A DNA stretch of 62,645 bases, filler included, from Anaerolineae bacterium (GTDB lineage: Bacteria > Chloroflexota > Anaerolineae > Epilineales > Epilineaceae): assembly GCA_029262755.1 (NCBI GenBank). It is 7 parts of 7 records of this genome, joined end to end, with 100 filler letters (N's around TTAATTAATTAA, not from the genome) between each part and the next. Parts side by side here need not be neighbours in the genome. Positions count along the whole stretch, not along the records: positions 38,717 to 55,393 come from JAJCYU010000347.1; 6 more parts are not named here. One strand, written 5' to 3'. Both the position numbers and the translations under genes were made by a program. This document shows, one piece after another, positions 5,973 to 55,493 of this stretch (positions within the stretch are counted from its first letter, which is position 1; each line of letters begins with the position of its first letter). A model generated the notes under the pieces. The model searched no databases. It was not told the origin of the DNA and saw only the letters and a list, made by a program, of their open reading frames with translations.

Positions 5973-5983
5973 GACACCGTCTC

Positions 5984-6318: not shown

Positions 6319-6418
6319 NNNNNNNNNNNNNNNNNNNNNNNNNNNNNNNNNNNNNNNNNNNNTTAATTAATTAANNNNNNNNNNNNNNNNNNNNNNNNNN
6401 NNNNNNNNNNNNNNNNNN
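6319..6418. other. Artificial contig spacer
   Basis: N44-TTAATTAATTAA-N44; stops in all six frames. Confidence 0.99.
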
Positions 6419-9350: not shown

Positions 9351-9450
9351 NNNNNNNNNNNNNNNNNNNNNNNNNNNNNNNNNNNNNNNNNNNNTTAATT
9401 AATTAANNNNNNNNNNNNNNNNNNNNNNNNNNNNNNNNNNNNNNNNNNNN
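9351..9450. other. Artificial contig spacer
   Basis: N/TTAATTAATTAA/N linker. Confidence 0.99.
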
Positions 9451-18562: not shown

Positions 18563-18662
18563 NNNNNNNNNNNNNNNNNNNNNNNNNNNNNNNNNNNNNN
18601 NNNNNNTTAATTAATTAANNNNNNNNNNNNNNNNNNNNNNNNNNNNNNNNNNNNNNNNNNNN
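18563..18662. other. Artificial contig spacer
   Basis: N/TTAATTAATTAA/N linker. Confidence 0.99.
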
Positions 18663-23140: not shown

Positions 23141-23240
23141 NNNNNNNNNNNNNNNNNNNNNNNNNNNNNNNNNNNNNNNNNNNNTTAATTAATTAANNNN
23201 NNNNNNNNNNNNNNNNNNNNNNNNNNNNNNNNNNNNNNNN
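23141..23240. other. Artificial contig spacer
   Basis: N/TTAATTAATTAA/N linker. Confidence 0.99.
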
Positions 23241-38616: not shown

Positions 38617-38716
38617 NNNNNNNNNNNNNNNNNNNNNNNNNNNNNNNNNNNNNNNNNNNNTTAATTAATTAANNNNNNNNNNNNNNNNNNNNNNNNNNNN
38701 NNNNNNNNNNNNNNNN
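38617..38716. other. Artificial contig spacer
   Basis: N/TTAATTAATTAA/N linker. Confidence 0.99.
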
Positions 38717-39870: not shown

Positions 39871-39912
39871 TTGGCGCGGGCAGGCACGGCGAGTCAGCCC
39901 GCGCGTACCAGG

Positions 39913-40440
39913 CTATAGTGCCTTGAAAGCCTCAAACGACTGCAGGCAGCCGTTGCAGTAATGCGCAGACCGGCAAATCGTGGGTCCGAAGCCGTTCTCC
40001 ATCACGGTTTGCGACGATCCGCAATAGGGGCAGGGAACGGGATCTTCGGAAGCGAGCAAGGGCTCGAGCGTGAGCGAGATATCCGTGCGGAAGCGGCCAA
40101 CCGGCGGTGGCGGGGCGAGGCCGATAGCCTGCATGCGCGCCCGGGCTTCCGGCGCGATACGGTCGCTGGTCCACGGAGGATCGAGCACGACCTCTACCCG
40201 TACGGCCGATGCACCGAGGTCGAGCACGCAGCTTTCGATTGCGGTGCGCATGAGGTCGAGCGCAGGGCAGCCGCTAAACGTCGGGGTGATCGAAACCACA
40301 ACCGCCCCCGAGGCAGAATCGACTTGGACCGCCTGCACGATGCCGAGCTCCACTACGGAAACGACGGGGATCTCCGGATCCTTAACCGCTTCGAGCGCTT
40401 GCATCACGACGGCTTCGTCTAGCAACCCGCTCCCGCGCAT
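39913..40440 (-). CDS. paaD: Phenylacetyl-CoA epoxidase subunit PaaD (PaaJ)
   Basis: VKDPEIPVVSVVELG, TPTFSGCPAL, PWTSD, CPYCGS, FGPTICR..YC..C..FEAFK; TGATG coupling. Confidence 0.93.
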   Translation of the reverse strand: MRGSGLLDEAVVMQALEAVKDPEIPVVSVVELGIVQAVQVDSASGAVVVSITPTFSGCPALDLMRTAIESCVLDLGASAVRVEVVLDPPWTSDRIAPEARARMQAIGLAPPPPVGRFRTDISLTLEPLLASEDPVPCPYCGSSQTVMENGFGPTICRSAHYCNGCLQSFEAFKAL

Positions 40441-41267
40441 CACCATGTGGCTTCAGGGTCGCTACGGAACATGCCCTGCATTGCTTCCAGCAACGCTACC
40501 TGCTCCGGCACATGACGACCGCTACGGCCGCCGACGCGAGGGTCTACGTCCGGGATCCACGCTTCTTCGGCCCGATGGGCCGGCGGTCGCAACCCGGCAG
40601 CCGCCAACGAGCTGCAGGTCACGTCGAGCCAGCGTTCACGCAGCAGTGCCTGGGACGGGATGAATCCGGCAGCAGCCAGCCGGTCGTGCGCGTCTTGCTT
40701 CTCAAAGAGGCCGAGCGCGAACGGAAACAGTTCGTCCAGCGCTGCTTGAATGGGGCCCCGACCCGTTTCGCTGCGGGCCAACCGTTCGATGTAGGCCCGG
40801 TTGTGGATGAGGTGGTACTTCTTCTCTTGCCGAAGTTTGGTCGCCGCAACGGCCACCTCGGCCACCCCGCATGCGATTAGGCCGTCGTAGAGCACGGCCT
40901 TGGCCAGGTCATGGAGGTGTCGCCGCATCAGGCTGAAGGGATACTCGCCGCGTGGCAGCGCCACGATTTGGGCGTTGCGCCAGTCTCCTGCATCGCGCGT
41001 AAACGCCAGCAGATCCGGCGATCGTGTCTCACCGAGGCCTGCAAGCAAGTTGTACCAGACCAAGGCATGCCCAAGTTCGTCCTGCGCCATGCTAGAAAAG
41101 GCGATGTCCTCCTCCAGGATGGGGCCGAGGCCCGTCCATTCCGAATCGCGGTGTCCCTGCAACATGCAGTCATCCGCGATGCCGAGGACGACGATAGCCA
41201 AATCGGCTCGCGCCGTATCGTCCATACTTGCCATCGCGATCGGTGCGGAAGATTCTTGGTCGTTCAC
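40440..41267 (-). CDS. paaC: Phenylacetyl-CoA epoxidase subunit PaaC
   Basis: GHRDSEWTGLGPILEEDIAFSSMAQDELGHA, EKKYH, GGRSGRH. Confidence 0.93.
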   Translation of the reverse strand: MNDQESSAPIAMASMDDTARADLAIVVLGIADDCMLQGHRDSEWTGLGPILEEDIAFSSMAQDELGHALVWYNLLAGLGETRSPDLLAFTRDAGDWRNAQIVALPRGEYPFSLMRRHLHDLAKAVLYDGLIACGVAEVAVAATKLRQEKKYHLIHNRAYIERLARSETGRGPIQAALDELFPFALGLFEKQDAHDRLAAAGFIPSQALLRERWLDVTCSSLAAAGLRPPAHRAEEAWIPDVDPRVGGRSGRHVPEQVALLEAMQGMFRSDPEATW

Positions 41268-41731
41268 GTCGACGTCCCCTTCGCTTCGGTCGTACGCGAA
41301 CTGCCTTGGATCCTGGAAGAGCGCAGGCCCTGAAAGCCGGCCGGCTCGCGGTACAGCTTATCCGTCGTGTGAATAAACACGTCTGCGTCCTCGTAGTCGG
41401 TCGCATGGATCGCATCCGCCGGTGTAACCCACAGGTTCACGCACGCACCGCGACGCGCAAAATTTTCTTTGGCCAGCACAAGCGCGACCTCGGCATCGGG
41501 TGCATGAATGGAACCAACATGGGCGTGATGCTCACCACGTTTGGCCTGTTGAAAGACTTCCCATACCCGCCATTCGGTGTCCGCCGATGCGTGGTCCGGC
41601 GCGCGGCGCCGCGCGAACGCCATGGCCTGGTGATAGGGGTCGAAGTTCCATTCGCGCGAGTAATGCGGCATTGCGTCTTGGCCGTCGGGCTTCGAATCGC
41701 TCTCGAAATCGGCTGTCGGATCGCCGTACAT
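41264..41731 (-). CDS. paaB: Phenylacetyl-CoA epoxidase subunit PaaB with N-terminal extension
   Basis: WEVF..HVGSIHAPDAEVALVLAKENFARRG..LWV, DKLYR. Confidence 0.9.
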   Translation of the reverse strand: MYGDPTADFESDSKPDGQDAMPHYSREWNFDPYHQAMAFARRRAPDHASADTEWRVWEVFQQAKRGEHHAHVGSIHAPDAEVALVLAKENFARRGACVNLWVTPADAIHATDYEDADVFIHTTDKLYREPAGFQGLRSSRIQGSSRTTEAKGTST

Positions 41732-41732
41732 A

Positions 41733-42722
41733 TCAGGCCGCCGCCCGAGGTTGCTCCGCCTGTTCCAGCGCGGTTCGTAGCCAGGAACCTTGTTCGTACA
41801 GCAGGCGCCGTAGAGCCAAACGCTCCGCGTTCAGAGGACCGCCACCTCGGATCACGCGCTTGAACTCGTCCCAGTCCGGTTGCGTGAAGTGCCACGTGCC
41901 CGAATCCTCGTCCCAACGCAGGTCCTCATCCGGGATCTCAAGCCCCAGCTCCTGAATCTTCGGTACGAATTTGCGCAGGAAGATCTGCCGCTGCTCGTCG
42001 TTCGTCTTCGGCTTGAGCGCCCATCGTTGCAAGATATCGGTATGCACCGACGCCCGGTCCGGAGGACCGAAGAACATCATGAGCGGCCACCACCACCGGC
42101 TAAACGCTTCTTGGCACATAGCCCGTTGCGCAGGCGTACCCGTGTGAAGCGTCACGACAAGATCGTAGCCTTGCTTGAGGTGGAATGCTTCTTCATAGGT
42201 GATCCGCTGGAGCGCACGCGAGTAGGGTCCATACGAGCCCGTCTGCATGATCGTTTGGTTCACGATCGCTGCTCCGTCGATCAACCACCCCACCATCGCG
42301 ATATCGGCCCAGGTCTCGCAAGGGTAGTTGAAGACGTTGGAGTACTTGGACTCCCCGTTGACAAGCTCCGTCATCATTTCGTGTCGCGGCTTGCCGAGGG
42401 TTTCCGCCGCACGGTACAGCAGTTGGGCGTGCCCGACTTCGTCTTGCACCTTGGCGATCAGGGCCATCTTCCGCCGGAAGCCGGGTGCGTATGGTATCCA
42501 TTGGCCCTCCGGCAGAGCGCCCATCAGCTCGCTATTGGCATGTTGTTGGATGAGCCGGATCAGCTGCTTGCGGTACAGCGCGGGCATCCAATCGCCCGGC
42601 TCAATCTTCTCACCACGCGCAATGCGTTCTTCAAACGCCGCCAGTTGGCCTGGTGAGGTTTCTTCCTCGGCTACGAGGCGCGGCGTGGTGGTACCGCCGG
42701 CTGAGTTCTCGGAGCTGCTCAT
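41733..42722 (-). CDS. paaA: Phenylacetyl-CoA epoxidase subunit PaaA
   Basis: [53 protein letters not shown] coupling to TetR. Confidence 0.96.
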
Positions 42723-43324
42723 TTGGTGCTCTCCTCGATGGATGGACGTGAGGCTGGGCGCAAGCCGTCCAGCAAGAGTCCCGCGATTTGTTCCGCGACG
42801 GTATCCGCCGTCAATTCGCCGTCCGGTCGGAACCACTGGTACACCCAGTTGCATGTAGACAGGCACAAGCGCGCGGCCATATCAACATCCGTGCAACCGA
42901 AGTGCCCTTCACCGACGCCGGTCTGAATCAAGTCTCGCCAGCGCTGTTCGTAGGCATCACGTCGATGACGAAGCCGCCGTAGGCGCGGCGTCGAGACGTG
43001 CCGCCAGTCTTGGAAATACACCGTGGCCGCGGGCAGATTCTCTGTGATCACGCCTACATGTGCGGCGACGGCGTGGCGAAGCTGTGCGCTCGGATCATCG
43101 TTGCAGTCGAGAGCCGCGCTCATCGCAGAATCGAATCGATCCGCGGATCGCTCGACCACCGCGGCCAACAACGCCTCTTTGCTGGAGACGTGCGCGTAGA
43201 GACTTCCCCCCTGCAAATCGAGGGCGCCCGCAACCTGGCGGATCGTCGTCGCGTGGTAGCCTTGGCGCCCGAACAACTGCTCGGCCGCCGTTGTGATCTC
43301 GTGAGCGCGCGCCGTCGTCGTCAA
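42719..43324 (-). CDS. TetR family regulator (PaaR-like)
   Basis: [37 protein letters not shown]; first gene of the paa operon; TTG start with GAGGA. Confidence 0.9.
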
Positions 43325-43380
43325 CAGACTTCCTCTTCGCGATTTCTTCGTGGGCGACCACGATCATGGGGACCGCCCGT

Positions 43381-43411
43381 AACCTAACAAGCGTTAGGTT
43401 GCATCGTAGCA
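43381..43411 (-). promoter_or_regulatory. TetR/PaaR operator with adjacent extended -10
   Basis: Perfect 8-4-8 palindrome AACCTAAC-AAGC-GTTAGGTT (43381-43400); TGcTACGAT immediately upstream on minus strand. Confidence 0.8.
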
Positions 43412-43518
43412 CGTGTGGTTCGTTGCGCCCAACCGGCTCCCCATCAGCCCGCCTCGCCTCGTCGGACCTAGTAGTGCGCCCGAGTACCAGCGGCACCGTC
43501 CAACGACGTGCGTACAAC

Positions 43519-43545
43519 GAGAAACCGCCGCCCGAAGGCGGCGGT
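43519..43545 (-). terminator. Intrinsic terminator of the lipoprotein gene
   Basis: ACCGCCGCC-TTCG-GGCGGCGGT followed by TTCTC on minus strand. Confidence 0.75.
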
Positions 43546-43576
43546 CAATCACTCGGTTGGCTAGCAGCGACTCGAA

Positions 43577-45073
43577 CTAGCGGGCGTCGCCCTCGGGCGC
43601 CGCCTGTACGTCGTTCGGACATTCGCTCTGCGACACATGCGAGCGCTCACCGACACGCAATGTTCCGCGATCCATCACGCGGAAGTACGCCGTATCCGTT
43701 TCGAGCACGTAGTCAGGCGGGGTGTCGTAGATGACGCTTACGCCTTCGGGGAAGGACGTGAGCTGCGAAGGCGACTCGAGGCCGTTCGTGGAGCCACCGG
43801 GGACGTTGGCTCGGTAGAGATGGTCCTCCCACTCGAACAGGAAGGACTCGTCCGTACCCATGTTGATCAGGTTGGCCGGCTCCGTCCGCCAATTTGCAAA
43901 GCGCGTGATCTCTGAAGCATCACCGAGCCGCTGACCGGAGTCGGCGTCGATTTCGCGGAACTGACTGTTGTAGAAGAGTTCAGGACCACCAATCGGCGTC
44001 TGCAACATGTACAGGCTGTCGCCCGCCGCGGACCAGGAAAGCTGCGGCGTCGACCACGTCACCTCATAGTCACGACCGTCGTTCGCCGTCAAGACCGTAG
44101 CGTCGTAGCGACGGAGCTGCTTGAGTTCGCCGCTTGCAACATCGAGCACTTGGACGATGGCCGAACCGACGCCCACGGTGCGCGCAATAGCCACGCGGCT
44201 CGAGTCCGGCGACCAGTGCATCTCTCCGCCGCGCAGCAGTACACCGGCGCGATGCTCATCATCCATGTCTGGTGCTTCCGCGGGCAAGGTGTCGCCCACG
44301 ACGATCTCGTTGGCACCATCCAAGCCGTACACGTATGGACGGCCTTCCGCCAGGTCGTAGACGCGCAGTTCACCCAATGTGCCAACCTCGGCGGCAACGC
44401 GTGATCCATCCGGACTCAACGACCATTGCTGAATCGGCTCCGATAGATGTACGTTGTTGACCGGAATCGGGGCCAGGCCGCCATCTTCGTTCGGGCTCAG
44501 CTTCGTATTGAGCACATCGTCCGGAACGGCACCCTGATACAGGCGCATGAGCGTGGAACTGTTGCCCCGGCTTACCGCAATCACGACGAGCCGGCCGTCT
44601 TCCGAGATCTCAACACCCTCCATCATCTCCGTGGGCCGGAAACCATCGACGGACGACTGCCCGGGACGCGGGGTGGAGTACGCTGGAACCTGACTCTCCG
44701 TATCCTCTACCTCCCACGTGCGCGCGAGGAAGTTCAGACGCGGAGCGCCGCCCTCACTCAGCTGTCGGATGTAGAGGGCGCGGTCGTCGCGGCGCCACAC
44801 CGCCTCGTCCGCCAGGTTCGGCGGACGCTGGGCGGAAATATACAGTACGGTCGAGCCGTCACCCGTCGCGGCGACGTCGAAAACGTCTCGTCCGAATGCG
44901 CGCAGACAGCCGCCGAACACGACGTTGACCACGTCCTCTTCATTTACTTCTTGGGGTTCGTCCGAGCTGAAGCTCGAGAGCAAGTCACAGCCCGTCGAGA
45001 CGGCGGCGAACGCAAACACGCTGACACCGAGAAACAACGCCCGTGCACAACGTGTGGCGCGTGAGAGAGCCAT
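43577..45073 (-). CDS. Lipoprotein with TolB/WD40-like beta-propeller
   Basis: AGGAGGAG RBS; lipobox STGC; LSPDGSRVA, WSPDSSRVA, WSAAGDSLY repeats. Confidence 0.8.
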   Translation of the reverse strand: MALSRATRCARALFLGVSVFAFAAVSTGCDLLSSFSSDEPQEVNEEDVVNVVFGGCLRAFGRDVFDVAATGDGSTVLYISAQRPPNLADEAVWRRDDRALYIRQLSEGGAPRLNFLARTWEVEDTESQVPAYSTPRPGQSSVDGFRPTEMMEGVEISEDGRLVVIAVSRGNSSTLMRLYQGAVPDDVLNTKLSPNEDGGLAPIPVNNVHLSEPIQQWSLSPDGSRVAAEVGTLGELRVYDLAEGRPYVYGLDGANEIVVGDTLPAEAPDMDDEHRAGVLLRGGEMHWSPDSSRVAIARTVGVGSAIVQVLDVASGELKQLRRYDATVLTANDGRDYEVTWSTPQLSWSAAGDSLYMLQTPIGGPELFYNSQFREIDADSGQRLGDASEITRFANWRTEPANLINMGTDESFLFEWEDHLYRANVPGGSTNGLESPSQLTSFPEGVSVIYDTPPDYVLETDTAYFRVMDRGTLRVGERSHVSQSECPNDVQAAPEGDAR

Positions 45074-45423
45074 CGGCAGTTCTCCTCCTGAGGTCCGAAT
45101 CTCCGGCGTCGGGGCGGCGCCGGCACAACCGCACCCGCCGTGATTCGCGGGAGCCAATAAGAGCGCGCCCGCGCCCCCACCTGCGAGAGCGTCGGGCCAG
45201 TCTACCAGATCAATGCTGTCAAGGTCATGACTGCCGCCGGACGACGACCTGACAATCGGCCCCCTCTCCAGCGGCGACTGTTTATCCGCCAAAGCGACGA
45301 TCCTGTCAAGTGTAAGGAGCCGTCTGTCGGAAGGGGCGACCCTGCTGTCGTTAGAGATTGGATCGGTCCGTTATACTCACGCCGCTCTGAGACCTCTGCA
45401 TGGAGCGCGCGCACTCGAGGTGA

Positions 45424-46332
45424 ATGATCGCTACGACATGGACGAAACCCACTCCCGTTCCCGGCGGAGCGTTGCCGACCAGAACGGCGGACTGGATGGC
45501 GCTCACCCGGCCACGCCTTGCCCTGCTCGGGTTGATCGTGGTCGTGCTCTCTTATGGGATTGCCGGAGCCATCGATCCCAAGCCTTGGCAGTTGACGACG
45601 CTTGTCGTGGGAGCGCTGCTCGCGTTGTCCGGTGCCAGCGCTTTGAACCAGGCAATCGAGATCACGGCAGACCGTCAAATGCGCCGCACGGCGGATCGGC
45701 CGGTGCCGAGCGGGCGGATTGGGCGCGCCGGTGCAGCCGCTTTCGGCTTGACCCTCGTTGCGATCGGCATCGTCATGCTCGCCCGAATCAACATGCAGAC
45801 GGCGGGTTGGGCCGCTGCCGGGGTCCTGAGCTACGTCCTGGTGTACACGCCCCTCAAGTCGAAAACATCCCTTTCGACGGTCATTGGCGCAGTGCCTGGG
45901 GCGATTCCCACGTTGATGGGATGGGCCGCGGCCACAGGCTCGCTCAGCGCAACAGCGTGGTCGTTGTTCTGGATCCTGTTCCTGTGGCAAATGCCGCATT
46001 TTCTAGCCGTCGCTTGGATGTATCGGCTCGACTATGCCCGCGCCGGTTTTCGGATGCTGCCCGATGTGGACGCGGATGGCGACGCGGCCACATGGCAGGT
46101 GCTTGCCTACGGAGCAGCGCTCGTGCCGGTGAGTCTTCTGCCCTCGATGATCGGTCCCGCCGGGCCTGGCTACTTCATCGGCGCCGTGTTGCTCGGCGCG
46201 GCCTATCTCGGCTTTGGACTGCAATTGAAACGCACACGTAGCGGGACTGCTGCCCGCGCCCTGCTCCGGGCATCGGTAATCTATCTGCCACTGCTGCTCG
46301 GACTGCTCGCGCTGGACGTGCTGGCCTTGTAG
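45424..46332 (+). CDS. cyoE: Protoheme IX farnesyltransferase (heme o synthase)
   Basis: LTRPR, NQAIE..DRQMRRTADRPVPSG, YTPLK, GAIPTLMGWAA, WQMPHF, DYARAG. Confidence 0.95.
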   Translation: MIATTWTKPTPVPGGALPTRTADWMALTRPRLALLGLIVVVLSYGIAGAIDPKPWQLTTLVVGALLALSGASALNQAIEITADRQMRRTADRPVPSGRIGRAGAAAFGLTLVAIGIVMLARINMQTAGWAAAGVLSYVLVYTPLKSKTSLSTVIGAVPGAIPTLMGWAAATGSLSATAWSLFWILFLWQMPHFLAVAWMYRLDYARAGFRMLPDVDADGDAATWQVLAYGAALVPVSLLPSMIGPAGPGYFIGAVLLGAAYLGFGLQLKRTRSGTAARALLRASVIYLPLLLGLLALDVLAL

Positions 46333-46436
46333 TGTCGCGGCATCGGTATCGGACATCGACGATTCACCCGGGCTGGAAGCCGCTGGACGTAGGTATGTAC
46401 GCCGAGACGATGCCTCTCAAGCGGCCGTGACAGGCG

Positions 46437-47084
46437 CTACCGCGTCCGCAGCACCGGCGTGAGCAGACGGAAGCCATGGCCGCGCACCGCGACGATGTGC
46501 TCGCCTTCCCCATCGATCGCGGTCATCCGAGAGCGGAGCCGACGTACCACACCATCGATCGCCTGATCCGAGACGCTCCCTTCCGGCGCATCGGGGTAGC
46601 ATGCGGCCGCGATCTCCGTTCTCGAATAGACCTTGCCGGGGTGATTGCACAGCAGGGTCAACAAGGCGAATTGATTCGGCGCAAGGGCCGGCTCCAGCCT
46701 CTGCGAAGCGAGCCAGACATCGCGCGACTCCGGATCGATACGAACACCGCGTTGTCGGCCGGCGGCAGGCGCCGTTGCCTCGTGGTCCACGAAGATCAGC
46801 TTGAAATGAGGCGGGACGAGGATCTCGTCGCCGTCGGTCAAGACCGCGGCTCGCTCGATGCGGGTGCCGTTGAGCAACGTCCCGTTCTTGCTTCCGAGAT
46901 CGACCAATACGTAGCGTCCCGCCTCGTGTCGGATCAGGCAATGGCTGCGCGATACCTCGCGATGTGCGAGACAGACATCGCTTTCGTCCCATCGTCCGAT
47001 CGTCGTCACTTCTTCGCGCAGACCCTGCCGGGTCGCGGCGGCTGCAGAACCATCGTGTACCATCACCATCGCGCGCTCGTTCAT
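46437..47084 (-). CDS. FHA domain + OmpR/PhoB-type winged-helix regulator (second copy)
   Basis: IGRW, VSRSHC, SKNGTLLNG; VRRLR..IVAVRGHGFR; GAAAGGAGG RBS. Confidence 0.92.
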   Translation of the reverse strand: MNERAMVMVHDGSAAAATRQGLREEVTTIGRWDESDVCLAHREVSRSHCLIRHEAGRYVLVDLGSKNGTLLNGTRIERAAVLTDGDEILVPPHFKLIFVDHEATAPAAGRQRGVRIDPESRDVWLASQRLEPALAPNQFALLTLLCNHPGKVYSRTEIAAACYPDAPEGSVSDQAIDGVVRRLRSRMTAIDGEGEHIVAVRGHGFRLLTPVLRTR

Positions 47085-47290
47085 CCGATCCCTCCTTTCG
47101 TAGATTGCTGCTGAATGGGTGCGAATCGAACGGACTCGCCGGCGAATGGGAATCGACGGGGCCACGAGGTTTTGGCTGTGACTGTGGCCCGCAGGCGGGA
47201 ACGGCCGATTCCTTGACCTGCTCTGCGAGGGACTACTACCCTCGGCTTGGACCGAATCCGCTCGGATCTACCAAAAGGGAAGAAGCCTCG

Positions 47291-48319
47291 ATGTCGCAGG
47301 ACGCAGCGTTCGCGGCGCGCTTGGTCAACGACCGATACATGCTGGTTGCCCGCATCGGCCAAGGCGGTGCGGGCTCGGTCTACTTGGCCGATGATTTGCG
47401 GCTTCCCGGCCGACAATGTGCCGTCAAGGAGATCGTGCTCCCAACGCGGATCGGTTCGGCGGCAGCCGAAACGATCCGGGCGGCGTTTCACGCGGAAGCG
47501 GTACTGCTCGCCCGCCTCGACCACCCCGCCCTGCCACGCGTCTCCGATCACTTCGTGGACAACGAGCGCAGCGTGCTGGTGATGGATTTCGTCGCCGGTC
47601 AGGATCTGGCCGCGCTGCTCGACGAAGCCCGATCGCGCGATCGTATGCTCGATGTGCGTCAGGTCTTGTCTTGGAGCGAGACCCTGTGCGACATTCTCTC
47701 CTACTTGCATCGACAGCGGCCGCCTGTCATCCATCGAGATATCAAACCATCGAATATCAAGCTTACGCCGGACGGACAGATCAAGCTGGTCGACTTCGGC
47801 CTGGCCGCAACCGGCGGCGAACCTGCCGACGGCATTACGGTAACCGTACAGGGTGGCGGATCGCGACCGTATCAGCCGCTTGAACAGTATGGAGAAGGAG
47901 GGGATGCCGACCCGCGAGCCGATCTCTATGCGCTCTCGGCCACGCTCTACCATTTGTTGACGGGGCGTGCGCCCTCGTCCGCTCGCGATCGATTCCTCGA
48001 TCCAAACGCACTGCGTGACATCGCGGATATTCGTCCGGACGTTCCTGCAACGACGGTAGGAGCGATCGCGCAAGGAATGGCGCTTCATCCCGACAAGCGA
48101 CCGGCAAGTGCAGAAGACTTGCGACGAAGGCTCATATCGCCCGCCGTCCCCGATACGGGCGTTCGTGCGGGACAGAATGGCAATGGCGGCGCAAACAGTA
48201 CAGTACAGGATGTGCCGATCACACTGTCTTGGACACAGGCGATCCGCGCCAATGGCGCGCTCGTCGGCGCCGTCATGATCCTGCTCCTCTTCGCCCTGGC
48301 CGTGACCTTCCGGCCCTGA
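47291..48319 (+). CDS. Hanks-type Ser/Thr protein kinase with single C-terminal TM (second copy)
   Basis: GQGGAGSVY, AVKE, HRDIKPSN, DFG, PLEQY; ends GALVGAVMILLLFALAVTFRP. Confidence 0.95.
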   Translation: MSQDAAFAARLVNDRYMLVARIGQGGAGSVYLADDLRLPGRQCAVKEIVLPTRIGSAAAETIRAAFHAEAVLLARLDHPALPRVSDHFVDNERSVLVMDFVAGQDLAALLDEARSRDRMLDVRQVLSWSETLCDILSYLHRQRPPVIHRDIKPSNIKLTPDGQIKLVDFGLAATGGEPADGITVTVQGGGSRPYQPLEQYGEGGDADPRADLYALSATLYHLLTGRAPSSARDRFLDPNALRDIADIRPDVPATTVGAIAQGMALHPDKRPASAEDLRRRLISPAVPDTGVRAGQNGNGGANSTVQDVPITLSWTQAIRANGALVGAVMILLLFALAVTFRP

Positions 48320-51230
48320 GTACCGCAACCACCTCGGCGAATACCAGCCCTGCGATGCCGCCGAGCAATGTAGCGCCCGCGACATCCCAGCCGGCCGGCA
48401 GTATCGGAACTGCTCCCGGCGCAGCCATCAGTACCACGACCGAATAGCCGATGTAGCCACACAGCGCCCCGGCCGCAGCGAGCAGCCCGGCCTCCCATTG
48501 CGCCTTCAGCCCGCGCTTGCGCCACGGGGGTGTCGCGACCGCGCCTCCCGTCACGACCGTGACGAGCAAGGCAACCGCGAGCTCCCACGGAGCAGGACGC
48601 GTTCGGCCTGCACGATCGCTTGACTGATCGGGCGGGATGCCGGGGGGATCACCGCTGCGCTTGTCCGGCGACCCGCCGAAGTGGTCCGACGTCAGTTCAT
48701 CCGTGGGTCGCAGGTCGGGAGTCGGAGGCGGCAGCTCGATGACAAGCGGTTCGCCTGCCGTTGCGCCGCTCGCCGTGGAGGCCTGCACGAGGACGCGGCC
48801 GCTACCTTGGAGCTCGATCTCGCCGCGCGCGACGCCGCTCGCCGTTTCCCACGAGACCGTCCCCGCAGCCAACGATGCCGCCGGCTCGGTCTGGATGCGC
48901 ACAAGCGTACCGTCCGGAACCGTGCGACCATTGTGATCTCGCACTCCGTCCACCTCGATGGCGATCCGATGGGGGTCATTCGGCGATGTCTCATCTACCC
49001 CGTTGCGAAGGATCTGCAAGTGCGTCCCCGGCATCGGTTCCAGTACCTGCGCCAACACATAGTCCGCGTTCTTTACGGTAACCGGCGACGCGCCCGGCGC
49101 ATCGCCCATTCCGAACCACGCGGCGATGGCGGCACGAATCGATGCCGGAATCTTGCTGTATGCGGAGTAGTGCGCACCCAATTGAGCGAGGTTGGTGGTA
49201 TCAATGTAGTACGGTGGACCGAAGCTCAACACAGCCACGCTGCCGTTTCCGACGCGCGCCAGGCTCTGCACTTGAGGTAGGAGTTGGCCTCGCAAGCGCA
49301 GGCTCTCGTCTGGATCCAAATCGGCAAATGCGAACACGATCCAGTTCGCTTGCAAGAGCGCATCGACAACCGCCGCATCGTCCTGCGCCGGATCACATCC
49401 TACGGATCTCTCCGGCTCCCCTTGGCCCGGCTCCTCTTGGGGCTGCGTGTCCTGAGAAGGTCGCGTCGCGTTCACTACAGGGCTCAATGCTTGATGGAGC
49501 TGGCAGAACGCGAGGGACCGAAGCATCTCCGGTTGTACGATGCCTAGGCCGCCGGGCCCGAACTCGTCCAACATCAAGGCTTCGACAAGGGTCGGCCCAA
49601 GGCCCTGCAATCGTTGCCAGGTCGCGTCGTCGAGTCCGCAGGATTCGTCCGGGCACGACAGAGGACCATCGTCGATATCGACTAGCCCGGTTCGGACGTC
49701 AATCGAGCGCGGCGTGATGACCACGATGCGATCGCCTCGGTTCGGCGGCGAATCCGCGGCTTTCCACACCGTGACCGCGGCGTCCGCAACCGACTGCACC
49801 GTCCGCCTTGCCTCCTCGCCGCCGACGAGGTCCGAGAGTCCGGACGCCGGCTTGACGGGGACATCCTCGCGGCGGGGATAGAGTCGTGCTTTCGCGCGCA
49901 AAATCCGGCCTGCAGCCTCGTCGACTCGCTCTCGGAATGCACGATCCGAACGGTACTCCGCCTCGAAGTAGTCGAGCGTATCGCGTATGTTGCGCAGCTG
50001 TGGGTCCCAGGCTCCCCGTGCGTCAAATTGCGCAAGCAAGAGCACGTCGTTACCCGCCATCAATGCCGAGCGGGCGATCTGGCGGTTCGGGAATCGTTGT
50101 TCTCGCGGCGCGAACCACTCTCGCACGGCCGGTACGCCCAACGAGTCCGATACGATCAACCCGCCGGCTTCGCGCCACGCGGCGAATCCAAATGGCCCTC
50201 CCTCCAAGAGCAGGGTCAAACCCTCCCGATCGAACGAAATCGGCGGCGTTCCAGCTTGGGTGTTACCCTGCAACCCGAAGTAGCGAATATGGCTGGTCAT
50301 GAGCGCATCCGTGACGGAGGCTCTGTCCGGGTCGCCCGGGGCATCGGCCGAGACCGCGGCGAAGGGCACAAGATCCACCGATTGGATGGCATTGGCCGGG
50401 GCGATGACCGTCGAGACGCCACTATCGGGGTCCCGATCGCTTCCTCCGTGCCCGGGGAAGTGCTTGGCGACGGTAAGAACGTTGCGCTGTCCGCCGGCAT
50501 GCACGCCGCGCACATAGGCAGCCCCCAGTCGAGCCACCCAATAGGGGCTGCCTCCGAAGCTGCGGATGCCAATGTCCCCGCCGCTGTCCACACGGGGATC
50601 GGCAAGCACGTCCAGCCCCGGTCCCAAGAGCAAGTTGACGCCGACCGCGGACAATTCGCGCCCGACGATCGTCCCGATCGCCTCCGCGGCGGTGGGGTCC
50701 CACGTTGCTCCGATGGCCATCGGCGACGGCAGGGCGCTGAAGCCCTCGCGCAGGTGCGTGAACGGGTTGCCGTCACCCTCGTGGTCCATCGCGATAAAGA
50801 GCGGCACGCCGGATCCGTTTTCAAGCGCCTGTTGCTGCAGGCGCGCGCTGAGACCGGCTATCTCGTTGGGCAGGTCGCGACCTCGTTCGTTGCGAAAGAT
50901 TCCGTTGCCCTTTTGCAACACGACCCCACCGACCGCGTCGTCGCCAACCAGAGCAAACACGTCGCCTTCGGGATCGTCGGGACGGGCGTAGTAGGCGACC
51001 ACAACGAGCTGCCCGACCCGTTCCCGCGGCGATAGCGCGTCCAGCGACAGCCAAGGCACAGCGTCATCGGGCTGCGCGAGGATACGCGGGGCGGCGCCGG
51101 TCATGGATCCCAGGACGCTGGTAGCGAGCGTTACAGCGAGCAGCGTCCTTGCCTGCCAAGAGATGTTCCGCGCGACGCGGAGCCGGCGGATCTCGGTGCC
51201 GGTCGGCGGGCTCTTATGGTCGACTCGCAA
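48273..51230 (-). CDS. Secreted, C-terminally membrane-anchored GH3 (NagZ-like) protein
   Basis: Signal peptide; IAMDHEG, PSPMAIGATWD, GVNLLLGPGLDV, RSFG, KHFPGHG, IVSDSLG, AGNDVLL; Ig-like domain; ~3 TM; start uncertain. Confidence 0.9.
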   Translation of the reverse strand: MRVDHKSPPTGTEIRRLRVARNISWQARTLLAVTLATSVLGSMTGAAPRILAQPDDAVPWLSLDALSPRERVGQLVVVAYYARPDDPEGDVFALVGDDAVGGVVLQKGNGIFRNERGRDLPNEIAGLSARLQQQALENGSGVPLFIAMDHEGDGNPFTHLREGFSALPSPMAIGATWDPTAAEAIGTIVGRELSAVGVNLLLGPGLDVLADPRVDSGGDIGIRSFGGSPYWVARLGAAYVRGVHAGGQRNVLTVAKHFPGHGGSDRDPDSGVSTVIAPANAIQSVDLVPFAAVSADAPGDPDRASVTDALMTSHIRYFGLQGNTQAGTPPISFDREGLTLLLEGGPFGFAAWREAGGLIVSDSLGVPAVREWFAPREQRFPNRQIARSALMAGNDVLLLAQFDARGAWDPQLRNIRDTLDYFEAEYRSDRAFRERVDEAAGRILRAKARLYPRREDVPVKPASGLSDLVGGEEARRTVQSVADAAVTVWKAADSPPNRGDRIVVITPRSIDVRTGLVDIDDGPLSCPDESCGLDDATWQRLQGLGPTLVEALMLDEFGPGGLGIVQPEMLRSLAFCQLHQALSPVVNATRPSQDTQPQEEPGQGEPERSVGCDPAQDDAAVVDALLQANWIVFAFADLDPDESLRLRGQLLPQVQSLARVGNGSVAVLSFGPPYYIDTTNLAQLGAHYSAYSKIPASIRAAIAAWFGMGDAPGASPVTVKNADYVLAQVLEPMPGTHLQILRNGVDETSPNDPHRIAIEVDGVRDHNGRTVPDGTLVRIQTEPAASLAAGTVSWETASGVARGEIELQGSGRVLVQASTASGATAGEPLVIELPPPTPDLRPTDELTSDHFGGSPDKRSGDPPGIPPDQSSDRAGRTRPAPWELAVALLVTVVTGGAVATPPWRKRGLKAQWEAGLLAAAGALCGYIGYSVVVLMAAPGAVPILPAGWDVAGATLLGGIAGLVFAEVVAVLRAGRSRPGRRGAGS

Positions 51231-51398
51231 CCTCTACTCCTTCCGACCGGGTCGTCGCGGGGCGCCCATGATGCTTCAGGGCGGGACGTGGTATCCGTCG
51301 CCAGATCGCCATCGTCCTGCCGAACTGCTGTCGGATCGATGCGCCTCGGGCCACTGGGCGGAGGTAATCCTTGACACAAGGCCGGTCAATCCCCGGCA

Positions 51399-52070
51399 TC
51401 AACTCGGCGGCGGTGCCTTCGCGTCCTCGCTAGAGCGACGTTCTCCGTCATCGGCATCGCGTAGGCTGCTTGCAAGGGCGGCCAGGCGGTCCGCATCGAG
51501 AACCCCTGGCGCTCGCTCAATGCTCCGCCACACATCAAGACCCCAGGGTTTGACGCGCCGGATGGCCGGCGCCACGTCTTCCAAACGCAATCGGTCGCTG
51601 GCAAGCAGCATGGGCGCCCTCGCAGCCAGGTCGCCCGCGACGTCCCAACGGCGCGCGATGGCGCCTCGCAAGTGGAGGAGCCAAGCAGCGCGCAGCGTTC
51701 GTCGCGTCTTGCGATCCAGATACAGATCCGCGGCCACCTGCGCCTCCTCGACGCTGCGTGCCGCGACGCCTTTGAACGACCAACCGCGTAAGGCGGCCAG
51801 CTCGTCGCGAGCCTCACCGCCAAACAGCTGCGCACCATCGAGCTGGCACTGATCGATGACGCGTTGGATCAGCGGTGCCGGCGTATCGACAAAGATGCCG
51901 ATCAACGGGATCCGAGCGGGGATGGCCTGGCGGATCTCCCACGCGCGAGCGGTCGTGATGTAACGGGGACTGCGTGAGTAAAACACGCATGCGATCATAT
52001 CCGCCCCGAGGGCAACAGCCCGCGCGGCGTCCGCAGGATCCGTAAGCCCCGTAACTTTGAGCAATGTCAC
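51399..52070 (-). CDS. trpF: Phosphoribosylanthranilate isomerase-like protein (degenerate active site)
   Basis: K.TGLT, GADMI..VFYSRSPRYI, GIFVD, QLFGGE, VKPWGLDV...E.APG; catalytic positions altered. Confidence 0.75.
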   Translation of the reverse strand: MTLLKVTGLTDPADAARAVALGADMIACVFYSRSPRYITTARAWEIRQAIPARIPLIGIFVDTPAPLIQRVIDQCQLDGAQLFGGEARDELAALRGWSFKGVAARSVEEAQVAADLYLDRKTRRTLRAAWLLHLRGAIARRWDVAGDLAARAPMLLASDRLRLEDVAPAIRRVKPWGLDVWRSIERAPGVLDADRLAALASSLRDADDGERRSSEDAKAPPPS

Positions 52071-52131
52071 GCCGCGTTACGTAGCAAAGACGGCTCACGC
52101 CGCGTCTCGGAGGACGTTGCCTCGCGTTGGC

Positions 52132-53697
52132 TCACGGACAGCCGACCTTATAGATAAGCGGATTACCCTCCGCGCTATAGGGTTTCGAAATCGTGCGAAG
52201 GGACAACCGACGCCGTGGCGGGTTCACCGGTGATGGCGGCAGGTTCGGATTGGCGAGCATTTCCCAGCCAAACACTTGCTCCGGGTTGGCCAGCGCCGCG
52301 TTGATCACGGCGACGGGAACACGGCCGTATACGATATTGCAAGCGCCCGGCGAAGGCGTTTGTGTAGGCGCTGGACCCGGCGTGGGCGGAACCTTCGTGG
52401 GCGCAGGTGTTGCCGTGGGCTGATCGCACGTTACGTTGACGACTTCTTCCGTGTCGTAGCGTATGCCGCCGTCGAACGATGCGCGCACCTTGATGTTCCG
52501 CACGCCGGTGGCCGTGCCGCCGATCGTGACGCGCCAGGCAACCGAGGTCGTATCGCCGGGCAGGATGTCCGGTAGGCCGCGGGTAGCGCTTTCGCCGGTT
52601 GCGACCGTCATGCCCGCAGGTAGTTCCAATGTGGCCGTTCCATTCGTCAGCGGGACCACATCGAAATTGGAGACGAACAAGGAAACGAGCATCGACGTGG
52701 TGCACCGGGCCGTAACCGGGGCGACGACGAACGCACGTCCGCCTCGATTGGCGGCGATCCCGTACCGTGTGCTGATCTCTCGTCTGCCGTTGGGAGCAAG
52801 ACGCACCGGCTCCCACAGGAGAGCAACCGCGCTGTCACTGGTCACAGGGCGGGTTACGTCGACGGGGTAGCGCCACGGTTCACGCTGAATTCTCGGCCAA
52901 TAGGCGATCGTAAACACGTCCGGGCGCGTCACACCCTCCGTGTCGAGGAGTCCCACGCTCCGTAGTCGGGACGGGTCGTAGGCAGGATCCTCGAACGCGA
53001 GCCAATATGCGGGCACCGCTGTACCCGTGAACGCCGTCTCTCGTGTTACGGTGCCAAGGCCGGGCACGAAGTAGGGCGCCCCATCGTTGTTGCCGATCTT
53101 GACGTCGAGCAACGAACGCACGCCCACATCGACCGCTGACTGCCCCTCGTTAGCGATGTTCCAATGTGCTTCGACGACATCCGAACGGGCCGAGAAGGGA
53201 TTTTGCTCGAGGCGGAGCGTCTCGGTGACCCTTAAGGAATACGCGCCGGAAGTCTGCCAGACGGTCTGAACCTCCGCATCGCCCTTCTGTACCTGCGACA
53301 CAACGTCGCGGGGATCGCGCGGCACGAAGTCTTCCACGCCCTGGCTGCCCTCCATGTGGATGGTCGTGTAGCTCGAGCCGACGTCACTGCCGCCCCCGGC
53401 GACATAGCCGTAGAGCAGGAACTTATCGTCGTCGAGAGCCGTGTCGGGATCGCCCTGCGTCGTGCCCATGGTGAACGATCCGAACGGGCTCACGTCCGCG
53501 CGCACGAAGCTGTTGACGACCCGTAGGCATGGAGCGGTCAAGGGGTTGCAGGAAAACGGGACCGGTCCGGCCTGCCGTTGCGCCGCGCTGGGCAATGGGC
53601 CACGTGTATCGATCGAAGAAAGCAAAATGTAGGCGGCCGCGAGAACGAACAAGCTCGTTCCCACGATCAACGGACGGCGACCTGACCCGGAGCGCAT
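52132..53697 (-). CDS. Secreted hypothetical protein: beta-rich domain, Ig-like domain, Pro/Thr linker, Cys-flanked C-terminal domain
   Basis: GGAGG RBS; N-terminal TM/signal; FTMGTTQGDPD..DDDKFLLYG; tail CNIVYGRVP...KVGCP. Confidence 0.8.
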   Translation of the reverse strand: MRSGSGRRPLIVGTSLFVLAAAYILLSSIDTRGPLPSAAQRQAGPVPFSCNPLTAPCLRVVNSFVRADVSPFGSFTMGTTQGDPDTALDDDKFLLYGYVAGGGSDVGSSYTTIHMEGSQGVEDFVPRDPRDVVSQVQKGDAEVQTVWQTSGAYSLRVTETLRLEQNPFSARSDVVEAHWNIANEGQSAVDVGVRSLLDVKIGNNDGAPYFVPGLGTVTRETAFTGTAVPAYWLAFEDPAYDPSRLRSVGLLDTEGVTRPDVFTIAYWPRIQREPWRYPVDVTRPVTSDSAVALLWEPVRLAPNGRREISTRYGIAANRGGRAFVVAPVTARCTTSMLVSLFVSNFDVVPLTNGTATLELPAGMTVATGESATRGLPDILPGDTTSVAWRVTIGGTATGVRNIKVRASFDGGIRYDTEEVVNVTCDQPTATPAPTKVPPTPGPAPTQTPSPGACNIVYGRVPVAVINAALANPEQVFGWEMLANPNLPPSPVNPPRRRLSLRTISKPYSAEGNPLIYKVGCP

Positions 53698-53788
53698 GAG
53701 GCTACCTCCCTGGTTGACAGGCGCACGGATGGCTACATACGGGGTCATGCAAAAAACGAGAAGCAAGCAAGACGTGTGCCGTCCGGCT

Positions 53789-54916
53789 TCATTCGCTCGG
53801 TCGGAAGGGGAGCTCCGGGTCGAGCTGATAGTAGGCGTGTGGGCCCCGCGTGTCGCGCTTCAAGAGGCCGACGTTGATCGCCTCTTTGATCAACCGCTTG
53901 ATGTCGTGGTTGGAGAGGTCGATGATCTCCTTGTTGCGCAGCCCGCGAAGCGCGTCGTAAATCTGGATAAACAACGCGGCGTTATCGAGCTGTTTCATGG
54001 CCTCTTCAAAGACGGCCCAATCCTTATCATCGAAGTCGGCGCCGCCTTCGTCCACCTCGTCCAGATCCTCGGCACTTGTGTCCGTAGGCTCGGGCGCGAA
54101 CTGACTGACCTCGTTGGGATCTTCATCGGGCAGCAGCACTTCTTTGATGGAGCCGGAAGCAAGGATGGAGACCTTGCCGGTTCGTTCCGCCTCGCGGACG
54201 AATGCCTTGAACTTCGTGTAGACCCGGCCCTGCGTATCCTTATACTTGCCTTCATCGAAAGACGGCATCAGCTCCAGCATGAGTAGCTTCAGCGTGCCGA
54301 GCGTGGTCACCTGACCGCGCTTGCGAGCTACCTTGATCGCTTCGATCAAGACCTCGAAGGGATCGCGCCCATCGTCTTTTCCGGACGCCCCGCCGATGTC
54401 CTCATCGACCTGACTGTAGTAGAGAAATTGATCGGCCGCCTGTGCGAGATGGCTCGCGGTGGCGTCCGCGACCCCGATCACCAACGTCCGCTTCCCTTGC
54501 TGCCGAATCGCGTTGACCAAGGGGATGAAGTCGCGGTCCCCCGTTACCAACACGTACGTGGTGATATTGTCGTAGGCATAGAGGGTCTTCATCATGTCGA
54601 TGCACAAGTGCATATCGACGGAGTTCTTGATGGCGCTGCCGGTGCGGCCCCTGTCCCGATCGTAGTGATAGGTCGGCACATACATCGGCTCGATGGCGTT
54701 CGCGTACAGCGCGTTGGTCACGCGCGGATAGCGGTACCAGTCGGCGTAGGCTTTCGCGATGGTCACCCGGCCATGAAGCTGACTCTGCTCCATGATTGAC
54801 TCGAAATTCGGATTGGCCTCGTAGCGGTTGCGCACCGAGATGTAGATGTTTTCGAAGTCGATGAAGACCGCGACGTCGCCGCGCTGCTGGATCGCCGGAG
54901 AATTGGAGTCAATCAC
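53789..54916 (-). CDS. NYN domain protein with LOTUS/OST-HTH domain
   Basis: AVFIDFENI, AYADW, KNSVDMHLCID, TGDRDFIPL; LOTUS-like PSFDE...KFKAFV. Confidence 0.9.
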   Translation of the reverse strand: MIDSNSPAIQQRGDVAVFIDFENIYISVRNRYEANPNFESIMEQSQLHGRVTIAKAYADWYRYPRVTNALYANAIEPMYVPTYHYDRDRGRTGSAIKNSVDMHLCIDMMKTLYAYDNITTYVLVTGDRDFIPLVNAIRQQGKRTLVIGVADATASHLAQAADQFLYYSQVDEDIGGASGKDDGRDPFEVLIEAIKVARKRGQVTTLGTLKLLMLELMPSFDEGKYKDTQGRVYTKFKAFVREAERTGKVSILASGSIKEVLLPDEDPNEVSQFAPEPTDTSAEDLDEVDEGGADFDDKDWAVFEEAMKQLDNAALFIQIYDALRGLRNKEIIDLSNHDIKRLIKEAINVGLLKRDTRGPHAYYQLDPELPFRPSE

Positions 54917-55042
54917 GAGTGGTCAAGGGCTCCTCGAGGATGGGTTCCGACGCGCCCGGTAGGCGTGCGTACGGTCCCGATATGAACGGCGACAGTATAG
55001 CATAGGCACGGGTCCGCCAATTCGGACCGGCTCCACAATCCA

Positions 55043-55071
55043 TTGACTCCGCACCCTCCCGGTGGTATATT
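55043..55071 (+). promoter_or_regulatory. Strong sigma70 promoter
   Basis: TTGACT-17-TATATT with TG extension. Confidence 0.75.
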
Positions 55072-55254
55072 CATTCGGTTGTTACAAAGTCCTCATCACG
55101 GCATGTCGCGGCTTGAGATCGAAATTCGGTCTCGACTGCGCGCTGCCGCTTTCACTATGGGGTGCCAGCCGCGCCGGCGTTTCGCGAGCGCGGCCAGTCA
55201 CGCCGCAGATTTCGAACGACTCCCGTATTTGCGCTGCCAAGGAGCAACGTCTCG

Positions 55255-55393
55255 ATGGCGAAGACTTCGGTGACCGAGGGCCAGATCACGCTGGAGCATG
55301 TGACGCCGCTGCCGCGGACGGGGCATGCCGAGCCGCTGCGTATTCGGCGCAATTATGCCCGCATCGTCAACCACATGGCGGCTCCGCCGTTGA
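55255..55393 (+). CDS. rpoB: Probable 5' end of RNA polymerase beta subunit (truncated by contig end)
   Basis: AAGGAG RBS; RRNYARIVNHMAAPPL resembles the RpoB N-terminal R-x-(Y/F)-A-(R/K)-I-x(5)-P-x-L motif; only 46 aa visible. Confidence 0.55.
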
Positions 55394-55493
55394 NNNNNNN
55401 NNNNNNNNNNNNNNNNNNNNNNNNNNNNNNNNNNNNNTTAATTAATTAANNNNNNNNNNNNNNNNNNNNNNNNNNNNNNNNNNNNNNNNNNNN
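55394..55493. other. Artificial contig spacer
   Basis: N/TTAATTAATTAA/N linker. Confidence 0.99.

Follow-up and report, generated by a model that had tools for sequence, protein, structure and literature searches.

How can a membrane-bound protein kinase respond to its surroundings when its chain ends at the membrane? The question is raised by three genes at 46437-51230 in a 62,645-nt stretch of DNA from an Anaerolineae bacterium (the window), which consists of 7 contigs from one fragmented assembly (428 contigs) joined by N runs. The trio lies on a 16.7-kb contig, C347 (window 38717-55393). It encodes a regulator in which an FHA domain is combined with a winged helix-turn-helix (FHA-wHTH, minus strand), a Hanks-type Ser/Thr kinase (plus strand), and a glycoside hydrolase family 3 (GH3) protein with C-terminal transmembrane helices (GH3-TM, minus strand). 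A first-pass annotation had proposed a new three-component signalling system. We find that the three genes are a conserved unit and not a chance arrangement, and that they suggest a so far undescribed path by which events at the cell surface could reach the genes. Our preferred reading is that the trio is one signalling module typical of Anaerolineae, a Ser/Thr analogue of a two-component system in which GH3-TM would serve as detached sensor or co-receptor; we give this slightly less than an even chance.

A conserved unit of three genes

The regulator gene (46437-47084(-), 215 aa, from open reading frame (ORF) and Pfam analysis) and the gene for the tail-anchored kinase (47291-48319(+), 342 aa, Pfam Pkinase) are transcribed divergently from an intergenic region (47085-47290) that, on direct reading, carries the promoters. 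The GH3-TM gene (48273-51230(-), 985 aa), assigned with Pfam, AlphaFold2 (AF2), Foldseek and family alignments, converges tail-to-tail on the kinase gene, and by the ORF coordinates their 3' ends overlap by 47 nt (48273-48319).

This layout was followed through other genomes from both sides. A search with the regulator returned 318 database proteins, and the 120 listed all combine FHA and Trans_reg_C under generic names. A scan of one genome per species gave 567 relatives, and the best 80 loci (L001-L080), all from Chloroflexota of Anaerolineae-type orders, were examined. Where the upstream sequence reached 1.3 kb or more (75 loci), the kinase gene is divergent and adjacent in 60. Of the 56 kinase loci whose upstream sequence reached 4.1 kb or more, 33 have a GH3-TM gene convergent with that of the kinase; GH3-TM without the kinase was found at none of the regulator-side loci. 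Starting from GH3-TM, the kinase gene converges on it in 25 of the 30 best loci, and three of the five exceptions fall at contig ends. The 3' ends of kinase and GH3-TM genes lie very close: among 54 pairs, 21 overlap and 24 are separated by 0-50 nt (median 1 nt). In two genomes (G224 and G173), GH3-TM and kinase genes are adjacent and the regulator gene is on another contig.

The genes outside the trio vary, including those for solute-binding proteins, glycine cleavage P protein, an epimerase, GDPD, a CoA transferase, MscL and ATP synthase a. Because the flanking genes differ between loci, the trio does not reflect general synteny. The neighbourhood survey suggested in the first-pass annotation therefore bore out the recurrence of the triad across Anaerolineae. 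A paralogous FHA-wHTH subfamily without a kinase neighbour was also present (L021, L033, L035, L039, L048, L053, L061, L064, L065, L067 and L075), flanked by genes for a protein of about 660 aa with an Amidohydro_1 domain, a CpXC-domain protein, a large Trypsin_2 protein, or a malectin-domain protein. CpXC and Amidohydro_1 genes flank the regulator gene in some complete trios too.

Co-occurrence was tallied by hand in 251 Anaerolineae genomes, sampled evenly, with cut-offs of E < 1e-100 for the best full-length-type GH3-TM match, E <= 1e-30 for the regulator and E <= 1e-100 for the kinase. The GH3-TM profile matched 222 of the 251 genomes at E <= 1e-20, of which 195 have the full-length type; the regulator profile matched 208 and the kinase profile 194. 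The trio genes are thus found in about three quarters of the sampled class genomes, in one or two copies each. Kinase orthologues stand out clearly, scoring about 500-580 bits over their full length versus at most 225 bits for other kinases. Kinase and GH3-TM are concordant in 244 of the 251 genomes (both in 191, kinase only in 3, GH3-TM only in 4, neither in 53). Regulator and GH3-TM occur together in 192 genomes, with regulator only in 16, GH3-TM only in 3 and neither in 40, and 13 of the 16 regulator-only genomes lack the kinase as well. None of five genomes that have the regulator but no kinase neighbour has GH3-TM (E <= 1e-50), and a kinase orthologue is absent from all three such genomes tested, with two controls scoring 502 and 535 bits. 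The regulators of these genomes are members of the paralogous subfamily described above. All three genes are kept, though unlinked, in G251, G253, G254, G119 and G079.

Make-up of the three proteins

The kinase is of the Hanks type by its Pfam Pkinase match (PF00069, E 2.6e-30, 106 bits vs a cut-off of 31.7). The catalytic residues K46, HRD148-150 and DFG168-170 are all present and are invariant across 53 kinases of the family. The Hanks domain is followed by a low-complexity linker of about 35 residues and a single hydrophobic helix (323-340), after which the chain ends with R341-P342. Because it stops two residues past the helix, the kinase has no ectodomain, in agreement with the initial description of a kinase without a sensor. 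This is a family trait: of 63 kinase ORFs, 59 were predicted to have a C-terminal helix, and in 55 of these 59 the chain continues for only 0-10 residues beyond it. The helix is preceded by a juxtamembrane W..A...N motif, which is found with or without a GH3 neighbour (motif, helix and the two last residues at 48227-48310(+), from the alignment and a residue check). The NCBIfam model PknB_PASTA_kin (NF033483) aligns with the kinase over profile positions 3-266 of 563 and scores 155 bits vs a cut-off of 450; with no PASTA repeats and an end two residues after the helix, the protein is not a PASTA kinase. In the Thr-rich activation loop noted earlier, Thr183 and Thr185 of the Thr-x-Thr segment (47837-47845(+)) are invariant in all 53 aligned kinases. 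By analogy with PknB and PknL, these two residues are the likely sites of autophosphorylation and FHA docking.

The regulator starts at an ATG with AGGAGG upstream; the longest ORF reaches 47165, and the 215-aa form is identical to database cluster P0001. It has an FHA domain first (46818-47006(-); PF00498, E 2.6e-19, 69.8 bits vs a cut-off of 20.7), followed by a Trans_reg_C domain (46464-46688(-); PF00486, E 1.8e-14, 54 bits vs 26.2) of the OmpR/PhoB-type winged-helix family, modelled by AF2 as a beta-hairpin, three helices and a wing. Pfam gave no Response_reg match at E <= 0.01, and NCBIfam response-regulator models align solely with the C-terminal part, far under their cut-offs, so the protein is not a response regulator in the usual sense. 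Neither is it of the EmbR/SARP type, since no BTAD match was found with Pfam. The idea of an OmpR-like protein with an FHA domain in place of the receiver therefore stands. Residues G30-R31, S45-x-x-H48 and N67 of the FHA domain, which in FHA domains hold phospho-threonine, fall in columns that are invariant across 18 diverse relatives.

The AF2 model of the regulator (pLDDT 89) shows two confident domains with a disordered linker between them. The closest solved folds to its FHA domain are those of GarA and OdhI (36-38% identity, TM 0.8-0.9 in Foldseek), and the matches include the solved PknB-GarA complex as well as PDB 2kb3, identified by its title. The FHA domain of EmbR (2fez, 31% identity) ranks after these, with 106 columns aligned out of EmbR's 373 residues. 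The linker carries the motif F-V-D-x-[ED]-A-T-[AV]-P-hydrophobic. Its Thr (Thr104, codon at 46773-46775(-)) occurs in every one of 120 relatives, and 103 of them have V, L, A, I or F at the +3 position. Thr104 opens the sole low-confidence stretch separating the two domains in the model. In GarA and OdhI, the FHA domain is bound intramolecularly by a phosphorylated Thr. By analogy, Thr104 is a candidate phospho-acceptor and FHA ligand: it may be the target of the kinase, and its FHA-bound state, in cis or between chains, could set DNA binding.

GH3-TM belongs to family GH3 (Pfam Glyco_hydro_3, E 6.6e-41, 141 bits vs a cut-off of 27). An AF2 model built with 30 relatives (pLDDT 75, pTM 0.73) begins with an N-terminal hydrophobic helix that may be a signal peptide or an anchor. 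Next come the two GH3 domains, a barrel (N domain) and an alpha/beta fold (C domain), and then an Ig-like sandwich, a linker and three helices. The TIM-barrel domain was placed at residues 69-445 (49896-51026(-)) from Pfam and alignments, the Ig-like beta-sandwich at residues 738-833 (48732-49019(-)) from the AF2 strands, and the three C-terminal membrane helices at residues 881-975 (48306-48590(-)) from the model and alignment. Among the best 120 relatives, 3 have a precomputed Pfam Big_1 match. The helices (881-904, 908-935 and 950-975) are preceded by a disordered Pro/Thr-rich linker. The picture of an exported GH3 protein anchored by some three C-terminal helices, with a gene that converges on and overlaps the kinase gene, was therefore correct. 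The membrane part is moderately conserved, its strongest motif being carried by helix 2 together with the outer loop. Little of the protein is cytoplasmic: a three-residue turn (905-907) joins helices 1 and 2, and there is a short unconserved tail. In the family alignment, neither the membrane region nor the tail has a conspicuously conserved Ser or Thr.

The comparison with NagZ, made in the first-pass annotation, holds for the fold but not for the catalytic motif. The best Foldseek match is Bacillus subtilis NagZ/YbbD, with a TM score of 0.71 over about 730 columns; this enzyme and a Paenibacillus GH3 beta-N-acetylglucosaminidase match with E values of about 1e-22 and TM scores of 0.71-0.78 on the target. 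The best sequence matches of the GH3 head to solved structures (PDB 4gyj, 3bmx and 6k5j) have E values of 1.8e-31 to 3.9e-23. Asp362 is placed by alignment at the nucleophile region of both 6k5j and YbbD, and 48 of 53 family members keep it. NagZ enzymes carry a K-H-F-P-G-H-G-x4-D-[ST]-H motif with a catalytic Asp-His dyad. In the GH3-TM protein of the window, the His column of this dyad is occupied by Asp in the alignments to 6k5j and YbbD, and both dyad columns vary across the 53 members. Conserved instead is a DR...E-E motif, with D265 in 53 of 53 members and R266 and Glu271 each in 51 of 53. Together with a score of 74.7 bits vs a cut-off of 207 for the NCBIfam NagZ equivalog NF003740, this makes GH3-TM a GH3 protein by profile and fold and not a canonical NagZ.

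Because the nucleophile and the Glu are mostly kept, most family members look like active enzymes, probably with a different acid/base residue. Position 271 is Gly in the protein of the window and in the two database relatives closest to it (residues 256-271 at 50418-50465(-)); speculatively, this lineage may bind a sugar without cleaving it and be non-catalytic. We also observed two Cys residues, C526 and C531 (49638-49655(-)), that are invariant in the 53 members and lie in a low-confidence insert (510-542); in the ectodomain, they might be joined as a disulphide or bind a metal.

Origin of the trio and possible direction of the signal

The domain content, topology, conservation, linkage and co-occurrence described above are the basis on which we infer protein contacts, a direction of signalling, a ligand and target genes. 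The kinase would autophosphorylate the invariant Thr-x-Thr of its activation loop, and the FHA domain of the regulator would dock on the phosphorylated loop. The kinase would then phosphorylate Thr104 in the regulator linker, and the phosphorylated residue would be bound by the FHA domain in cis, as in GarA and OdhI, or in trans in a dimer, thereby altering DNA binding by the winged helix. The FHA domain would thus take the place of the receiver in a one-protein OmpR/PhoB-type effector. GH3-TM, with its head and three-helix anchor, would supply the input that the Anaerolineae kinase has lost: a beta-linked sugar, possibly derived from the cell wall, would be bound or turned over by the head, and the event relayed in the plane of the membrane to the kinase helix. 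GlcNAc or muropeptide glycans, the ligand proposed in the first-pass annotation, may be involved.

The steps of this scheme differ in strength. That the kinase acts on the regulator is very probable, and GH3-TM is probably tied to the kinase functionally in some way. A role of GH3-TM as upstream sensor through membrane contact falls somewhat short of even odds. The full scheme, a class-wide three-protein pathway from surface glycan state to transcription with a GH3-fold ligand subunit (in some lineages, that of the window included, perhaps a non-catalytic sugar binder), a kinase switched in the membrane and an FHA regulator with a linker phospho-threonine, is put forward tentatively, at odds rather below even.

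The distribution of the genes gives some insight into the history of the trio. In a phylum-wide sample of 301 Chloroflexota genomes (34 in-class, 267 out-of-class), GH3-TM (E <= 1e-100) was found in 32 of the 34 in-class genomes and in 2 of the 267 others, both of one family and both with the whole trio. All 34 in-class genomes have the regulator architecture, as do 32 of the 267 from outside the class. A Hanks kinase gene is divergent beside the regulator gene in seven of eight out-of-class loci (L129-L136), and at loci L124-L128 kinase and regulator are linked in five of five. Because it is present in other Chloroflexota classes, the kinase/FHA-regulator pair is the old core; because the pair occurs without a GH3 neighbour in those classes and in two Anaerolineae clades, GH3-TM is an added partner. 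Of the initial proposal of a three-component system, the conserved unit is upheld, with the GH3 protein standing outside the core.

The out-of-class kinases are longer (526-841 aa). Six of seven have a Pro/Thr-rich tail of about 150-200 aa after the helix, and one of seven (L132) has a PD40 beta-propeller. A Pro/Thr-rich stretch is common to these tails and to the linker before the GH3-TM helices. In this sample, the membrane-truncated kinase and the GH3-TM partner coincide in Anaerolineae, and neither was found in the out-of-class loci examined. From these sequences, the sensor appears to have moved from the kinase to a partner protein. In a kinase tree, from which L060 and L066 were left out as broken ORFs, rows group by taxon label (e.g., Caldilineaceae, Leptolinea, Aggregatilineaceae). 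The GH3 neighbour is scattered over deep branches, with at least two label changes on starred branches, and the first kinase of the window is on a very long branch, so that its position is unsure.

Several observations speak against GH3-TM as the sensor or reduce the force of the linkage data. The convergent orientation means that GH3-TM is not co-transcribed with the kinase, and a fusion search found no kinase domain in the best 120 of 3329 GH3 relatives (710-1063 aa). Two well-supported kinase clades have no GH3 neighbour, one of Caldilineaceae type (16 rows) and one of Promineifilaceae/Ardenticatenaceae type (6 rows). No full-length GH3-TM was found in G252 and only a fragment at a contig end in G255, and in G043, G168 and G198 the kinase is present but no GH3-TM match is strong. 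Co-absence is in part trivial, because adjacent genes are deleted together or missed together in assembly gaps, and since related genomes are not independent the co-occurrence counts overstate the case. The membrane helices are only moderately conserved. The partial Mantel correlation between kinase-helix and GH3-helix distances over 53 pairs, a number too small for coupling analysis, was 0.30 (none of 2000 permutations as high) but dropped to 0.18 with quadratic covariates, compared with -0.13 to +0.14 in control regions. The predicted activity of most GH3-TM members would suit an enzyme no less than a sensor. Finally, a shared-word search of the divergent intergenic regions of L001-L080 revealed no operator; only sigma70-like -35 and -10 words recur. 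The commonest shared 7-8-mers are the reverse complements of TTGACA-like and TATAAT-like boxes, so that, by sequence, the kinase gene has a promoter of sigma70 type. The start codons of kinase and regulator are merely some 20 nt apart in L023 and L046.

Kinase and regulator could instead be self-sufficient, responding to a membrane or cytoplasmic cue or working constitutively against a phosphatase, with GH3-TM a mere neighbouring surface glycosidase or a target of the regulator. We consider this unlikely, though several observations favour it: other classes have the pair but no GH3-TM, the two Anaerolineae clades have it with no GH3 neighbour, G252 shows no full-length GH3-TM, the W..A...N motif is unchanged whether or not GH3-TM is nearby, the GH3-TM nucleophile is mostly kept, and convergent genes do not form one operon. 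A self-sufficient pair accounts less well for a GH3-TM neighbour that is conserved where other flanks are not, and for its adjacency to the kinase gene in G224 and G173 despite a moved regulator gene. It also sits poorly with a concordance of GH3-TM that is tighter with the kinase (244 of 251) than with the regulator, as the 16 regulator-alone genomes show, and with the finding that the lineage bearing GH3-TM is exactly the one whose kinase lost its ectodomain.

The signal might also run in reverse, with the kinase controlling the activity, placement or stability of GH3-TM through the membrane, the latter trimming wall or exopolysaccharide, and with the regulator as a second, transcriptional output. 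This arrangement fits the same linkage and co-occurrence data, the nucleophile and Glu kept by most family members and the wall-recycling role of the closest solved relatives (NagZ/YbbD). We nevertheless think it rather improbable, since the tiny cytoplasmic parts of GH3-TM, with no conserved Ser/Thr, make it a poor kinase substrate, and since the protein in the window lacks the family Glu. A mobile anti-phage defence or accessory island around a Ser/Thr kinase was rejected as extremely unlikely: the kinase matches the PADLOC PD-T4-6 and mad6 kinase models (E down to 2.4e-55) over the generic kinase domain only, there are no PADLOC matches for the other two proteins, the genes are class-wide in the numbers given above, and the kinase tree follows taxon labels.

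The signalling module with GH3-TM as detached sensor thus remains our preferred reading. Sensor-less kinases are the hardest case for finding an input, and here genomic linkage indicates a candidate; all three parts are small enough for reconstitution. The FHA-wHTH regulator, with full-length matches in 208 of the 251 class genomes and in 32 of the 267 from other Chloroflexota classes, would be a simple and widespread direct route from Ser/Thr phosphorylation to transcription. Anaerolineae are abundant filamentous bacteria in sludge, sediments and biofilms, and a class-wide pathway responding to surface sugars could bear on the building of their filaments and sheaths. If GH3-TM is only a neighbour, a clean kinase-regulator pair with a predicted phospho-site would still be left.

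A second set in the window and comparison with known systems

A second, paralogous set occurs on a 6.3-kb contig, C342 (window 1-6318). The two sets are thus on separate contigs, which need not be neighbours in the genome; in the window, N runs (paired 44-N) are found at 6319-6418, 9351-9450, 18563-18662, 23141-23240, 38617-38716 and 55394-55493. The first-pass annotation had seen the arrangement recur at 1-2453, and this is correct for kinase and regulator. The second kinase (556-1686(-), 376 aa; Pfam and residue check) is 52% identical to the first, and the second regulator (1749-2453(+), likely start ATG at 1821; Pfam) is 42% identical to its counterpart, in the same divergent arrangement. 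In this kinase, the membrane helix is followed by about 50 residues. The GH3 gene is represented only by its last 185 codons (2-559(+)), cut by the contig start. BLASTP detected no similarity between their product and the first GH3-TM. A profile of the family's C-terminal 250 columns, built without the protein from the window, did match this product (43 bits, E 1.5e-15 for a single target), across both the membrane region and the final part of the Ig-like domain. Because of this match we regard 2-559 as the same kind of gene, of which any GH3 head would lie beyond the contig start.

A tblastn search of the assembly identified two regulators, one GH3-TM gene and no others. A regulator that is probably orthologous to the second one (64% identity) is encoded on a contig of genome G228, which stops before the kinase. 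Two candidates for a complete counterpart of the second set were discarded: in L031, whose kinase groups with the second kinase of the window, the convergent neighbour is no GH3-TM relative, and a second complete trio in G024, of the same family, is not clearly orthologous. A gene for a GT4-type glycosyltransferase (2197-3756(+); Glycos_transf_1 and Glyco_trans_4_4) lies just downstream of the second regulator gene and overlaps the end of its ORF. Near the first trio, two ORFs had no Pfam match at E <= 1e-5: 43577-45292(-) (571 aa), in which WD40/TolB-like 'SPDG' repeats are visible by eye, and 52132-53766(-) (544 aa).

We found nothing on an FHA plus Trans_reg_C regulator or on the trio in Chloroflexota in the literature that was searched, which left out subscription journals and supplements. 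In its accessible part, one preprint (10.1101/2021.02.01.429150) names both FHA and Trans_reg_C but handles them separately. The proposal of a new system holds in that the trio is absent from the literature found; the concept is not wholly new, because the GlnH-GlnX-PknG-OdhI/GarA precedent discussed below exists. What is new is the combination, very consistently conserved, with a predicted phospho-site and a named candidate sensor, whereas the domains and the logic are known.

As to the head of GH3-TM, the two-domain GH3 fold and nucleophile position are shared with NagZ/YbbD and the Paenibacillus enzyme. GH3-TM differs from NagZ/YbbD by a dyad that is not conserved and by the extra Ig-like domain, the Pro/Thr linker and the three membrane helices. 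Carbohydrate-binding or glycosidase-like extracellular modules serve as transcription sensors in the RsgI anti-sigma factors of Clostridium thermocellum (PMC10328401, PMC6852018). In RsgI, however, the sensor is fused to the anti-sigma factor and the signal involves proteolysis, with no kinase and no FHA domain. The PASTA kinases PknB, PrkC and Stk1 are membrane Hanks kinases linked to cell-wall sugars and peptides (PMC6213207). They carry their own sensor, whereas the trio kinase has a related kinase domain with neither PASTA repeats nor an ectodomain.

Two known pairs resemble kinase and regulator. PknL has almost no extracellular part, and to our knowledge its substrate Rv2175c has no FHA domain. 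According to a title cited in PMC6213207, this neighbouring DNA-binding substrate is recruited through phosphorylated activation-loop residues of PknL. The combination of a kinase and a neighbouring DNA-binding protein is the same as in the trio, but PknL-Rv2175c has no GH3 partner. EmbR has the order wHTH, BTAD and C-terminal FHA domain, and PknH has its own ectodomain. In Mycobacterium tuberculosis, the Hanks kinase PknH phosphorylates EmbR, an OmpR-like regulator with an FHA domain (PMC6213207, PMC9239209). In the regulator of the trio, FHA comes before wHTH and no BTAD was detected, and PknH-EmbR has no glycosidase partner.

The closest functional analogue is the GlnH-GlnX-PknG-OdhI/GarA pathway of Corynebacterium and Mycobacterium, where a sensor-less Hanks kinase receives its input from separate extracytoplasmic and membrane proteins encoded alongside and acts on an FHA effector (PMC9769921, PMC6069109). 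The trio likewise has a kinase without its own sensor, a separate protein as candidate input and an FHA effector. The membrane protein GlnX has four helices, and PknG carries a TPR domain. General Pfam and NCBIfam scans of the trio, made without a direct comparison, gave no domains of the GlnH-GlnX-PknG type. The two systems also differ in how the parts are distributed: GlnH-GlnX-PknG uses a solute-binding protein plus a membrane protein as sensor and a soluble kinase, whereas the trio has one GH3-fold protein and a tail-anchored kinase. Furthermore, the FHA effector inhibits an enzyme in GlnH-GlnX-PknG, whereas in the trio it is a DNA-binding regulator.

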